In this document: piece after piece, positions 1,991 through 19,894 of the stretch | Position numbering within the stretch: the first letter of the stretch is position 1 | Layout: each line of letters begins with the position of its first letter | NCBI GenBank assembly: GCA_019057815.1 | Contig: JAHLWR010000027.1 | Location: 1-47,106, forward strand | Source of the DNA: Candidatus Heimdallarchaeota archaeon | Lineage (GTDB): Archaea; Asgardarchaeota; Heimdallarchaeia; Heimdallarchaeales; Heimdallarchaeaceae | Direction: 5' to 3' | DNA length: 47,106 nt | Notes under the pieces: generated by a model | What the model saw: only the letters and a program-made list of their open reading frames with translations | What the model was told of the DNA's origin: nothing | Database searches by the model: none | Position numbers and translations under genes: made by a program

Positions 1991-2019
1991 TTTGTTGCTA
2001 ATAATGTGTTATATTCAAT
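1991..2019. other. dif-like 11-7-11 site, copy 1 (putative tyrosine-recombinase site)
   Basis: TTTGTTGCTAA-TAATGTG-TTATATTCAAT. Near-identical copy at 3627-3655. Both lie just left of a 16S-trailer repeat. Confidence 0.4.
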
Positions 2020-2023
2020 CATC

Positions 2024-2180
2024 AAAAATATTTTTTGCGAAAGTAAAAGAATTAAAATTTAAAGAGAAATAAAAAACCCCCTAAGGAATACAGGAACCTC
2101 GAGAAGACCTATCTTTCAATAAGAAAGAAAAAGGATTGGGAAGCCCGTGAGGGCCTCCAAACGTAGGAGGTGATCCATCC
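2024..2180 (-). repeat. Duplicated 16S rRNA 3' tip and trailer plus last codons of the 1625-aa ORF (copy 1)
   Basis: Near-identical to 18244-18396. It ends AGGAGGTGATCCA-TCC, the intron-less exon junction. Confidence 0.95.
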
Positions 2181-2192
2181 TCATTGATATAT

Positions 2193-2241
2193 TTACAATA
2201 CTTAGAGAACAACTTACAATACTTAGAGAACAACTTACAAT
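2193..2241. repeat. 21-bp tandem repeat, about 2.3 copies
   Basis: TTACAATACTTAGAGAACAAC x2 followed by TTACAAT. Confidence 0.9.
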
Positions 2242-3590
2242 TAATGCTTCTTTCTTGAACTCCAAAGTTTCCTCACAATAAGAGCAAGTGGAAATATGAA
2301 TAAGAAAAGAGGTAGTGCTAAGAATTCATCAATTGTTGGAAATCCCGGTGATTCATAAAGCGGGAAAGGGTCATTAACATTAGCGTTTCCGTCAATTGGA
2401 TATGTTCCAGTTCCATCCCAATCAGACCAGTAATTGCCCTCATTTATCGATTGGTCAAACCATACATTGTAAACCCCATCATCATAAGCTTGAGAAGTTC
2501 CTCCAATATTATTATCTACAAAGATATTTGAAGCAATAACTGTGTCAATTGTGTCAGTAAGATAGAGACCATAGTTGCTATTATTATATAGGAGGTTGTT
2601 TTTAACCTCACTGTATTTAACATGTTCTAAATATATCCCATCCATCGTGTTATTAGCACAGGTGTTGTTAATAATAGTGTCATACCATGAACCAATGGTG
2701 TAAAACATCCCATAATCGTTTTCTATACAGGTATTGTTAGCTACAAGAGTATGAAAAGAATCTTTGTGATAAATCCCATAGCCATTATCTTTACAAGAAT
2801 TGTTGACAATGGTTGAGTAGGAGGAACCTTTGAGTGAAATCCCATAATATGTATTATTAAAGCAATTACTATGACTAAGAGTAACATAGGCAAGACGAAA
2901 TTCTATTCCATATCCATTTGAAAAACAGGTGTTATTGGAAGCAAAAGCATCAGTATTCCAAATAATAAGGCCTACAAGCGTGTTGTTGAAGCAAGTGTTA
3001 TTGGTAACCACGGATTCAAGACATGTAATCACACAAAGACCATTATTATTGCTCTCACAAGTATTATTAGCAACAATAGAAAATAAACAAGTATCTAATT
3101 GAATACCATAACGGCTATTATTCTTACAAATATTAGCAACAACAGTGAGATTATACGAGAAAATAATACGAATACCATCAAAGCAGTTGGTACAAGTATT
3201 ATTAAATACAGTGGCTGTTTTTTCTCCTACTTCTTCAATATAAATCCCATAACTTGAAGCAGTGACTTGACAATGTTGAATAATAAAGTGTTTGGAAGTA
3301 TTGAAAACACTGATTCCGTTCCTTTCGTCAGTGATGATTGTGTGATTTTCTATCCTGTAAGGGTCTTCTTCTGTACCATTACCTGGGAAACCAAGATCAA
3401 TGAAATCTTGATCAGAAGTAATGTTGATAGGTTCTTGAGAGGAAAGAAGAAAAATTGGTTGTAGGGGGATGGTCGAACCACTAGCTATTTGAAAGGGTAT
3501 TGGATTGTTTATTTCAAGAATAAGAAGGAGAAATAGAAAGGCTAGAGCTAAGTTATTTCTGAATTTTATAGAATACAAGCACTTTGTCAT
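2241..3590 (-). CDS. NosD/PbH1 parallel beta-helix surface protein
   Basis: Signal peptide, G.GT..DPY.I motif, beta-helix repeats, GNYWSDW, PGF then TM helix and basic tail. Confidence 0.9.
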   Translation of the reverse strand: MTKCLYSIKFRNNLALAFLFLLLILEINNPIPFQIASGSTIPLQPIFLLSSQEPINITSDQDFIDLGFPGNGTEEDPYRIENHTIITDERNGISVFNTSKHFIIQHCQVTASSYGIYIEEVGEKTATVFNNTCTNCFDGIRIIFSYNLTVVANICKNNSRYGIQLDTCLFSIVANNTCESNNNGLCVITCLESVVTNNTCFNNTLVGLIIWNTDAFASNNTCFSNGYGIEFRLAYVTLSHSNCFNNTYYGISLKGSSYSTIVNNSCKDNGYGIYHKDSFHTLVANNTCIENDYGMFYTIGSWYDTIINNTCANNTMDGIYLEHVKYSEVKNNLLYNNSNYGLYLTDTIDTVIASNIFVDNNIGGTSQAYDDGVYNVWFDQSINEGNYWSDWDGTGTYPIDGNANVNDPFPLYESPGFPTIDEFLALPLFLFIFPLALIVRKLWSSRKKH

Positions 3591-18266: not shown

Positions 18267-18282
18267 AAGAATTAAAATTTTA

Positions 18283-18296
18283 AGAGAAATAAAAAA
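18283..18296 (-). terminator. T-tract terminator of the 16S transcript
   Basis: Minus strand TTTTTTATTTCTCTT directly after the 3' arm of the processing stem. Confidence 0.55.
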
Positions 18297-18354
18297 CCCC
18301 TAAGGAATACAGGAACCCCGAGAAAACCTATCTTTCAATAAGAAAGAAAAAGGA
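18297..18354 (-). other. 3' arm of the 16S pre-rRNA processing stem
   Basis: Imperfect inverted repeat of 20017-20078. Confidence 0.8.
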
Positions 18355-18383
18355 TTGGGAAGCCCGTGAGGGCCTCCAAACGT

Positions 18384-19894
18384 AGGAGGTGATCCACTTG
18401 CGATACATAAGTTTCTACTCATGTATTTCCGCAGGTTCCCCTACGGATACCTTGTTACGACTTTTGCATCGTCGCGAAGCCCAATTTCGAATAAGCTGTA
18501 ACAGCCCAACCTCAACCGAACCTCACTTCGTTGCAACGACGGGCGGTGTGTACAAAAAGCGGGGACGTATTCTCCGCGCGATGATGACACGCGGATACTA
18601 GGCGCTCCATGTTCACGAGGTCGGTTACAGACCTCGATCCCTACTGCGAGCAGGTTTGGGGGTCCGCTTCCCCTTTCGGGGTCGCCTCTCATTGTCCTAC
18701 TCATTGTGATGCGTGTGTGGCCCTGGGGATTAGGAGCATACTGACCTGCCGTGGCCCGCCCTTTCATCTATCTTCATCGATAGCGATCTCCCTATTGTCC
18801 TCAGCCAAGCCGAAGCTTGCTCTTAGCAAATAGGGACGCGGGTCTCGCTCGTTTACTCACTTAAGAGCACACCTCACGGCACGAGCTTGAGACGGCCATG
18901 CACTACCTCTCTGTTTTATTCGAGTAAGGTCTTCAGCCTGACTCACATTTAACAGTCGCCCCAGGTGAGTTTCCTCGCGTTGAGTCGAATTAAACCACAC
19001 ATCCCGTGCCTTGTGGCGCTTTCCCGTCAATTCATTTAAGTTTCAGCCTTGCGACCGTACTCCCCAGGCGGAGGATTTAATAGTTTCCCTTTGGCACTGA
19101 TCAGGCCCTTAGCCATAACCAACACCTAATCCTCATCGTTTACGGCCAGGACTACAGGGGTCTCTAATCCCTTTCGCTCCCCTGGCTTTCATCCATCACC
19201 GTCGAAGATATTCCAGTGAACCGCCTTCGCCACTGTGGGTCCTGCGAGAATCAACGCATTTCACCGCTTCTCTCGTAGTACCGTTCACCTCTCCTATTTC
19301 CTAGGTTAGTGGTATCCTTGACAGCCTACAAGTTAAGCTTGCAGATTTGATCAGGGACCTACTTACCCGGCTACGGATGCTTTAAGCCCAATAATCGTCC
19401 TGAGCACTCGCAGAGCTGGTTTTACCGCGGCGGCTGGCACCAGCCTTGCCCTCTGCTTGCTGTTAGAGCTTTAAACACTCCATCACAGCTAGGGGGTAAC
19501 CCTAGCACTTGGGTTCGCGGCCTCACGCTTTCGCGCATTGGGCACGATTCCCGACTGCTGCACACCGTAGTGCTAGGACCAGTGTCTAAGTGTCCTTCTC
19601 GGGGCTCCTACTCTCATAGCCCCTACCGATCAATGCCTAAGTGATCCATTACATCACTTACTAGCTAATCGGCCGCGGCCTCATCCTGTGGCGATCCGAA
19701 GACCATTAAATATTGGCCCTTTCCAGGAGTCCATACTTATCGGGGATTAGTCTCAGTTTCCCGAGGTTATTCCCGTCCACAGGGCAGATTGGCGACGTGT
19801 TACTGAGCCTTTCGCGATGCCTCCGAAGAGACATTCCACTTGCATGTCTTTAGCAAACCCAATAGCACTCAGGTCCGGCATGATCAACCGGCTT
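18384..19894 (-). rRNA. rrs: Archaeal 16S rRNA, containing a 31-nt intron
   Basis: 5' CCGGTTGATCATGCCGG; GTGCCAGCCGCCGCGGTAA; GTACACACCGCCCGTC; AAGTCGTAACAAGG; 3' GGATCACCTCCT. Confidence 0.99.
18397..18427 (-). other. 31-nt BHB mini-intron between helix 45 and the anti-SD
   Basis: CC-UGCG-GA|A-[10-bp hairpin with AGAA loop]-CGCA-AG|U-GG. Splicing restores CCUGCGGAUGGAUCACCUCCU. Confidence 0.9.

Follow-up and report, generated by a model that had tools for sequence, protein, structure and literature searches.

A hypervariable gene island bounded by copies of the 16S rRNA 3' end and trailer in Heimdall-family Asgard archaea

Throughout a family of Heimdall-type Asgard archaea the DNA behind the 16S rRNA gene, judging from sequence comparison, is a hypervariable island, its accessory genes standing between copies of the 16S 3' end and of the trailer that follows it. 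The island is described here chiefly for one genome (termed G000), where it lies on contig C23--a stretch of 47,106 bp that was analysed whole and is termed here the window--and continues onto a second contig, C10. The reading favoured here, with a probability of roughly 0.58, is that of an integrase-free insertion hotspot with target duplication, at which DNA would be gained and rearranged by homologous recombination and at which the need for an intact, single 16S gene would act as the filter. A first-pass annotation of the window had described a tandem cassette array built on repeated 16S 3' ends and had proposed a dedicated rRNA-targeting integrative system as its source; the array stands, but the dedicated system is not supported: no integrase was found in G000 or in three relatives with such copies, and the lengths and 3' boundaries of the copies vary.

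Copies of the 16S rRNA end and the trailer

The G000 assembly (3.7 Mb, 33% GC, 95% complete, 48 contigs) derives from a short-read metagenome. According to Rfam the window holds one 16S gene (minus strand) and one 23S gene (plus strand, 3375 nt) in divergent orientation, and neither has a second copy within the 48 contigs. The resident unit at the end of the 16S gene, which is complete, is termed T0 and its copies T1 to T5 (Table 1; boundaries are given relative to the 16S end, negative within the gene and positive beyond it). T1 is 346 nt long and agrees with T0 at 97.4% of 347 aligned positions. T2 starts 12-16 nt short of the 16S end with the sequence GGAT|GGATCACCTCCT, which is the insertion-free junction found in relatives. 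Its orthologue is the last copy of G001, a genome of the same genus, with which it has 13 nt of upstream flank in common. T3, T4 and T5 lie on C10, which abuts the left end of the window through an exact overlap of 56 nt (a length that suggests a k-mer graph) and through a 621-aa NosD open reading frame (ORF) that stays open across the joint. The same-orientation repeats of the 16S end that the first-pass annotation had reported were all recovered, an eroded 26-nt remnant included, and three more were added on C10.

All G000 copies are in the 16S sense, which is the minus strand of the window, and with increasing distance from the 16S gene they shrink (346, 154, 106, 75 and 63 nt) and diverge (from 97 to 80% identity), the 26-nt remnant being the exception. 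A profile of the element, run over the 3.7 Mb of G000, finds only the six copies T0-T5, the remnant falling below threshold; by this measure the repeat is neither a dispersed repeat nor a product of chance. Copy lengths range from 26 to 346 nt overall and from 63 to 346 nt among copies of at least 60 nt, and 3' boundaries range from +84 to +300. Where 16S bases are included, the 16S-side boundaries lie mostly at -12 to -21, that is, at the start of the helix 45 3' strand, beside a mini-intron site described below; other boundaries are at -146, at -45 and from +14 to +127. Starts at -12 to -21 occur in at least seven genomes (G000, G001, G022, G012, G024, G004, G023, L064, G011a).

Read in the 16S sense and starting from the 16S side, the island consists of T0; an antisense block of a 1625-aa ORF, a HEPN gene and three further ORFs; the 26-nt remnant; two ORFs and a SIR2-STAND gene; T1; a NosD gene; T2; an antisense block of Rce1-like and NosD genes; T3; a leucine-rich repeat (LRR) gene; T4; a gene for a 156-aa protein; and T5. 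There follows a conserved flank with a 487-aa gene, a ~530-aa TPR-like gene, the phosphoenolpyruvate carboxykinase (PEPCK) gene, a deaminase gene and the L1/L10/L12 genes. The copies do delimit gene blocks, as had been described, and the cargo of these blocks is of surface type or defence type (NosD, SIR2-STAND and others). T2 corresponds to T1 shortened by 69 nt, and a 49-nt repeat, D6, comes after each of them; the NosD gene between T1 and T2 was therefore inserted together with the duplication of a unit of ~270 nt. D6 was also considered as a dif/Xer site and was rejected, since it is part of this NosD-flanking duplicated unit and no Xer-type recombinase was found in G000.

What is duplicated is a functional part of the ribosomal locus. 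The true 3' end of the 16S gene is position 18384 (..GGATCACCTCCT), its terminal TGGATCACCTCCT occupying 18384-18396; the Rfam match stops at 18421 because a 31-nt insertion parts helix 45 from the anti-Shine-Dalgarno sequence (anti-SD). Beyond the gene end, the T0 core pairs with the 16S leader when each locus is folded singly (G000, G001, G022, G012, G008 and G004), and a consensus fold of 10 rows from 9 genomes has 23 leader-trailer pairs, 8 of them with compensatory double changes. It follows that the core supplies the basal pre-16S processing helix with its 3' strand, and T0 evidently has an ordinary, essential role in ribosome maturation. The oligo-T run after the core is probably a terminator. 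Core and T-run are retained in every copy; an Rfam search of the C10 copies matched no known RNA family at E values up to 0.1.

The insertion is carried by the 16S genes of G000, G012, G024, G008 and G011c and is missing from those of G001, G022, G004, G021 and G011b. With a length of 31-32 nt it occurs in roughly every second 16S gene of the family, and also in distal pseudo-copies, namely T1 (3882-3912) and G011a. Its hairpin arms co-vary between genomes (ATACAT/ATGTAT versus GTATGT/ACATAC), and it is consistent with a mini-intron of the bulge-helix-bulge (BHB) type that has been gained, lost or converted. A longer insertion, of 796 nt with a 244-aa ORF inside it, occurs in a 2370-nt 16S gene from metagenomes (L065, 4064-6433; L074). 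It was considered as an insertion at the same -13 site and set aside, for it sits in the 530-loop region; it is probably an rRNA intron with a homing endonuclease.

Could the array be an assembly artefact, in which repeats of different strains or loci were chained together? A short-read metagenome, a 56-nt overlap between contigs and exact runs of ~200 nt common to the repeats invite that suspicion, as does a difference in depth between the blocks. It is nevertheless barely credible. The assembly was tested with Logan contigs only, the best runs probably being the source of the G000 assembly; independent Logan contigs match 1606-2053, 2148-3699 and 3954-18215 without any difference, the second spanning both junctions of the NosD cassette and the third confirming the joint of the 16S fragment in T1 to the SIR2 block, so that every junction between unique and repeated sequence is present in reads. 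The repeat core has a depth of ~200-320x versus 50-67x for the blocks, or 4-6 times single copy. The copies differ from one another by substitutions and indels; G001 is collinear with G000 over the C10/C23 joint (the T3-NosD block, which is inverted in G001) and with the far flank; and two closed genomes built from long reads have the layout as well (see below).

Within the two source-like runs, the depth is 50.8 for the NosD block (2148-3699) and 66.8 for the 14.3-kb block (3954-18215), a gap for which a mixture of strains, additional copies of the larger block or noise could be responsible. Cassette pieces at 90-98% identity are present in two runs from other studies. A joint 2108>18305 (in X1/X2) was considered as an excision product and rejected: it is out of register and is best taken for a unitig that stems from a different copy of the trailer.

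The island in related genomes

T0 was searched against 40 genomes, 24 of them of the same family. Seventeen of the 24 have a match, and 11 of 25 (G000 counted) have two or more. The arrays stand directly behind the 16S gene, with copies ~2 kb apart, and the mapped copies are in the 16S sense except for one that is inverted (in G001). Among Joint Genome Institute (JGI) metagenome contigs the core pattern picks out 22 stretches, several with two or three same-strand copies behind a 16S gene. In G030, a genome of another family (10 contigs), the trailer of the genome's own 16S gene is not duplicated. Depending on the genome, the cargo includes NosD, LRR, HEAT and peptidase S9 proteins, tandem ~530-aa TPR-like paralogues and unassigned ORFs; the ~530-aa cassette family gives weak TPR signals and nothing recombinase-like.

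Turnover is most readily seen between G000 and G001. The 16S gene with T0 is 97% identical between them and the far flank 92-95% identical, but their islands overlap in the HEPN gene alone: that of G001 measures 5.3 kb with 3 copies versus 22 kb with 7 copies in G000. The first-pass annotation had suggested looking in relatives for variable cassettes set within the same boundaries; the cassettes are indeed unlike and the boundaries of the same kind. In G001 the HEPN gene directly follows T0, where G000 has T0, the 1625-aa ORF and then HEPN, and whole blocks are missing between copies that the two genomes have in common. The 1625-aa ORF indel has one of its edges inside the T0 core, and the distal end of T0 in G001 resembles the 26-nt remnant of G000 plus its flank.

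The orientation of the locus varies as well. In genus g3 an array, a small gene and a deaminase gene lie between co-oriented 16S and 23S genes that are 8-11 kb apart. In the genus of G000 the two rRNA genes point away from each other and 906 nt separate their 5' ends (window 18384-24175); an inversion of the 16S-plus-array segment would link the two layouts. G001 has an inverted trailer copy and a NosD gene between its 23S and 16S genes (L038, 17937-18012); trailer copies seem also to mediate inversions or relocations.

The copies do not evolve independently of the resident unit. Orthologous cassettes in L064 and G011a (83% identity over 1.4 kb) carry a copy without the mini-intron in the one and with it in the other, and each genome's copies bear their own lineage-specific changes in the core; hence the resident T0 is converting them.

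HeimM2 and HeimV2 are CRISPR-targeted elements of Ca. Heimdallarchaeum that lie behind the 16S gene (Wu et al. 2022, PMC8813620). Wu et al. place the insertion between the 16S gene and tRNA-Arg(TCT) and propose that a homing endonuclease was co-opted for HeimM2 integration, and flanking repeats are not mentioned in the main text (PMC8813620). Two of the relatives, G004 and G007 (single closed contigs of 3,081,793 and 3,326,783 bp), appear from their order of LRR, LAGLIDADG and tRNA(TCT) genes to be the published closed Heimdallarchaeum genomes. G004 repeats the final 20 nt of the 16S gene and 113 nt of trailer (-20 to +113) 6.6 kb downstream at 96% identity, with an LRR block in between and with the LAGLIDADG gene and tRNA(TCT) past the second copy. 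The trailer of G007 recurs 38 kb and again 40.7 kb behind the 16S gene, which gives blocks of 38 kb and 2.7 kb, so that the two genomes carry unlike inserts behind a common T0. Because these copies bracket the HeimM2 and HeimV2 sites, the layout is present in long-read closed genomes and coincides there with CRISPR-targeted elements. The HeimM2 block of G004 also holds, 185 nt behind the 16S gene, a decayed copy, in inverted orientation, of the terminal ~130 nt of 16S (L055, 1740-1840; 75-86% complementary).

The G000 island resembles these elements in belonging to the same family, in standing directly behind a sole 16S gene, in its LRR or surface-type cargo and in its homologous bracketing copies. 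It differs in that the window lacks both a free-standing LAGLIDADG gene and a tRNA gene (tRNA genes being likewise missing from C10 and from most related loci, with tRNA(TCT) in G004 the only one), in that none of the 121 spacers extracted from 6 G000 arrays matches C23 or C10, and in its number of copies, which reaches seven as against two or three.

A second way to account for the copies dispenses with any influx of mobile DNA: they would be mainly functional 3' modules, acting in termination or RNA processing, that were spread by local tandem duplication of a gene along with its trailer. Most mapped copies do lie 3-70 nt past the stop codon of a same-sense gene (more than 20 distal copies lie within 70 nt), ~40% of the island genes being antisense, and the core and T-run are always retained. 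In g3 the tandem ~530-aa TPR-like paralogues each have a copy, and the duplication in G012 reaches +275, into the upstream region of the next gene. This explanation is nonetheless quite unlikely: homologous copies follow unrelated genes (NosD, LRR, SIR2-STAND, HEAT, the 156-aa membrane protein and others); T1 and T2 hold pieces of the 16S gene itself; whole blocks differ between close relatives; and the CRISPR-targeted HeimM2 and HeimV2 occupy the same site (PMC8813620).

Routes of insertion

According to the reading favoured here, new DNA would enter by recombination anchored on the highly conserved 16S end and trailer, whether through a single crossover of a trailer-bearing circle, through unequal exchange between genome copies, or through insertion with long target duplication. 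As the single-copy 16S gene needs its trailer to mature, only products that rebuild an intact 16S gene and trailer would survive, the older copy being displaced outwards; with such a filter for a single 16S gene beside its processing strand, only target-duplicating events would become visible. Later recombination and gene conversion between copies would cause deletion, duplication, inversion and homogenisation of cassettes, and circles could be looped out, while the T-run of each copy would probably also terminate the gene in front of it. No dedicated integrase would take part.

Several features, taken together, accord with homologous recombination and with insertion with long target duplication (PMC3457768): no integrase was found in the genomes named below, duplicated lengths and 3' boundaries vary, NosD was inserted with a duplication of ~270 nt, and copies are converted. 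In addition, the end of the 14.3-kb block that separates T1 from T0 falls, in frame, inside the 81-nt ORF tail within the repeat, so that homology must have guided this junction. The excision that the first-pass annotation had envisaged is geometrically sound, in that recombination between T1 and T0 would release a 14.5-kb circle with an intact 1625-aa ORF and leave an intact 16S gene.

Several points weigh on the other side. No circle, empty site or population variant was observed in the Logan data (which are contigs rather than reads), and a 22-mer from the left junction of T1, used to search for an empty site, had no match in JGI metagenome contigs. The clustering of boundaries at -12 to -21 hints at a site-specific step, though shared ancestry and gene conversion can also explain it. 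The 1625-aa gene stands beside T0 in several genera, which does not fit a strict rule that the newest cassette lies nearest. Random junctions do not predict copies 3-70 nt after the stop codons of unrelated genes, a proximity that needs either selection for a terminator role or a capture step. And the origin of the first trailer-carrying circle is left without an explanation.

The boundary clustering is the starting point of a rival in which a site-specific nuclease or recombinase acts at the 16S end (the helix 45 loop or 3' strand), repair copies a donor trailer with its cargo and joins it back onto the break, and the mini-intron then protects the site. The candidate nuclease is the free-standing LAGLIDADG endonuclease that is encoded right after the trailer in some relatives. 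That the 5' boundaries of copies bearing exon 2 (the 16S end beyond the mini-intron) cluster at -12 to -21 across genomes, that the mini-intron is patchy at -13, and that LAGLIDADG genes directly follow a trailer copy in G004 and G011 (56% identical to each other) all speak for it, as does the endonuclease co-option that Wu et al. proposed for HeimM2 integration (PMC8813620). Even so it is unlikely. Among 31 family genomes a free-standing LAGLIDADG gene was found in 3. G000 is not one of them, its LAGLIDADG matches being inteins, and the free-standing genes adjoin intron-less 16S genes, which are the supposedly cleavable ones. A break at -13 cannot yield a copy that starts at -21, and the recent T1 begins at -146; in L064 and G011a the boundary has been inherited while the interior was converted; and the 3' boundaries spread from +84 to +300. 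A comparison of the LAGLIDADG protein with PDB sequences gave nothing informative.

Classical integrative elements, with a tyrosine integrase that acts in trans or has since been lost, would leave direct repeats that include the target gene's 3' end, such as those found here and at tRNA and transfer-messenger RNA (tmRNA) genes. Moreover, a boundary that falls at the loop or 3' strand of helix 45 may resemble the integrase sublocations within tRNA genes that Williams reportedly described in 2002. The first-pass annotation had noted the lack of an integrase in the window, and there is indeed no recombinase among its ORFs; the lack extends to all of G000. Integrases of PF00589 have no match in G000 (95% complete), in G001, in the closed G004 or in G022, and those of PF16795 (SSV-type) have none in G000, G001, G004, G007 or G011; the single integrase of G007 lies 2.2 Mb from the site. 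The insert carries no terminal inverted repeats, transposase or integrase, the exact trailer-core pattern was not found in IMG/VR viral contigs, and the blocks of identity are long and variable in length. This origin is accordingly judged highly unlikely.

Two observations concern recombinases more generally. Serine recombinases are present in G000, on other contigs. A Phage_integrase-family (Xer-type) recombinase was undetected in G000, G001, G004 (closed) and G022 and is present in 14 of 14 control genomes.

A bolder proposal, which is tentative and on balance doubtful, would make the locus an integrase-free, integron-like capture platform of Heimdall-family Asgard archaea: its site would consist of the processing-helix 3' strand plus the terminator; breaks at helix 45 or the mini-intron, made by a patchily distributed LAGLIDADG endonuclease, may activate it; each captured gene would receive a ready-made terminator; and transfer between cells could take place as trailer-bearing circles.

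Island genes, known systems and implications

Table 1. Features of the island and of the 16S rRNA locus (positions refer to the window unless a contig is named)
Feature	Position	Strand	Remarks
T0, resident unit	18186-18530	minus	146-nt 16S end, 117-nt trailer stretch and 81-nt tail of the convergent 1625-aa ORF
T1	3670-4015	minus	copy of T0 from -146 to +198, with mini-intron, exon 2, trailer and 81-nt ORF tail
T2	2024-2177	minus	copy of T0 from -12 to +140; 97.4% over 154 nt versus 18244-18396
Eroded 26-nt copy	9376-9401	minus	end of core and T-run only
T3, T4, T5	C10: 1212-1317, 2638-2712, 3332-3394		92%, 80%, 84%
D6, 49-nt repeat	3610-3658 and 1974-2022	minus	distal to T1 and T2
16S rRNA gene, single copy	18384-19894	minus	Rfam SSU_rRNA_archaea 18421-19894; only 16S in the assembly
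31-nt hairpin insertion	18397-18427	minus	BHB-type mini-intron candidate between helix 45 and anti-SD
T0 core	18286-18323	minus	3' strand of basal pre-16S processing helix (18297-18323) and oligo-T run (18286-18296)
16S leader strand pairing with the T core	20051-20075	minus	leader-trailer folding
1625-aa ORF	13389-18266	plus	convergent on 16S; last 27 codons in T0
HEPN-domain protein	12336-13217	plus	sole island gene in common with G001 (93% aa)
Three ORFs (308, 214, 253 aa)	9428-12132	plus	no family match
Two ORFs (133, 204 aa)	8283-9306	minus	no family match
SIR2 - STAND NTPase - TPR protein	4187-7438	minus	ThsA-like SIR2 domain, defence-type; T1 next
NosD/beta-helix protein, 449 aa	2241-3590	minus	one-gene cassette between T1 and T2
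Rce1-like CAAX protease	932-1942	plus	with zinc ribbon
621-aa NosD/beta-helix gene, 3' part	1-882	plus	start at C10:1040; T3 before the start

The 1625-aa ORF, which had been counted as cargo, matches nothing in Pfam, NCBIfam or PADLOC. Its homologues (33-45% aa identity) abut the trailer in G022, G024, G018, G011, G014 and the metagenome locus L065, are absent from G001, and recur beside the trailer in genus g3, so that the gene is rather a recurring neighbour of the 16S gene than evident cargo; paralogues lie on contigs C12, C16 and C44. The SIR2-STAND protein matches Pfam SIR2_2 (1.7e-17) and nSTAND3, and PADLOC ThsA (1.6e-16). The Rce1-like gene has paralogues on C38 (84% aa, 88% nt) and C24 (78% aa, 86% nt). 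On C38 (203800-211500) a match to the 16S-23S spacer at 20215-20459 (83%), one to the Rce1-like stretch 887-1995 (88%) and a weak match to the 1625-aa protein fall within 8 kb, which looks like a paralogous segment without rRNA.

Farther out on C10, a TnpB gene (Cas12f1-like TNB domain; C10:10786-12264) lies within a 1.8-kb element (C10:10573-12338) in the gap between the PEPCK and deaminase genes, where it is an insertion relative to G001. TnpB was considered as the engine of the array and rejected, being a lone TnpB outside the array, 7 kb past the last copy, and a separate insertion with respect to G001. On the window's other side, a 58-nt inverted repeat (83%) brackets the 23S gene (20737-20794 and 24180-24237), as expected of a 23S processing stem; YaaC-like and AbiEii-type AAA_21 genes follow (24812-27337), with no duplicate of the 23S trailer seen. 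The gene for DP2, the large subunit of DNA polymerase D (29455-34422), contains an intein with a LAGLIDADG domain.

Further known systems invite comparison. Like the islands at tRNA and tmRNA 3' ends, the present one has a conserved RNA gene as target, repeats that contain its 3' end, a rebuilt gene and displaced fragments that decay outwards; unlike them, it targets the 16S gene with its processing trailer, has no integrase that could be found, and has repeats of 26-346 nt with variable ends that reach well past the gene. Insertion with long target duplication is reportedly the subject of work by Nobusato (2000) and Furuta (2010, 2011). The known cases include rRNA operons and partial duplications of the 16S 3' end (Lim, Furuta and Kobayashi 2012, PMC3457768). 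There, as here, inserts that are often defence genes lie between direct duplications of at least ~100 nt without a transposase or integrase; those cases, however, are single and bacterial, whereas here an archaeal array recurs throughout a family and the duplicated piece has a role in RNA processing. Relatives agree with this pattern, G001 lacking whole blocks between copies that G000 also has, and G004 and G007 bearing unlike inserts behind T0.

The island partly resembles integrons and clusters of attC sites lacking integrases (CALINs), in that its copies form a one-directional array of variable content whose mostly single-gene units would each end in a conserved site of ~60-150 nt. It differs from them in having no IntI (G000 has no tyrosine recombinase), in its many antisense cassette genes, and in a site that is conserved in sequence, comes from an rRNA gene, lacks the R/L box palindrome of attC and has the distant 16S leader as its pairing partner. 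The archaeal pre-rRNA processing stem, finally, is matched in that the leader-trailer helix is kept by compensatory change.

No landmarks of a genome are held to be more stable than its rRNA genes, yet here the end of the sole 16S gene anchors the most variable stretch nearby, and the defence and surface genes found there differ between species of one genus. If the favoured reading holds, the principle that the 3' ends of RNA genes serve as landing pads would extend from tRNA and tmRNA to rRNA, and gene capture could run without an integrase because selection for an intact rRNA and processing stem would filter the products. It may also explain why the published Heimdallarchaeum elements occupy the site at the 16S end. 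The lack of a detectable Xer-type recombinase in four genomes raises the question of how chromosome dimers are resolved there. In practical terms, sequence adjacent to 16S genes in Asgard metagenome-assembled genomes is repeat-rich and prone to mis-assembly and mis-binning, so caution is due. At the same time, the island marks a defined spot at which recent gene flow can be sought in that lineage of archaea to which eukaryotes are closest.

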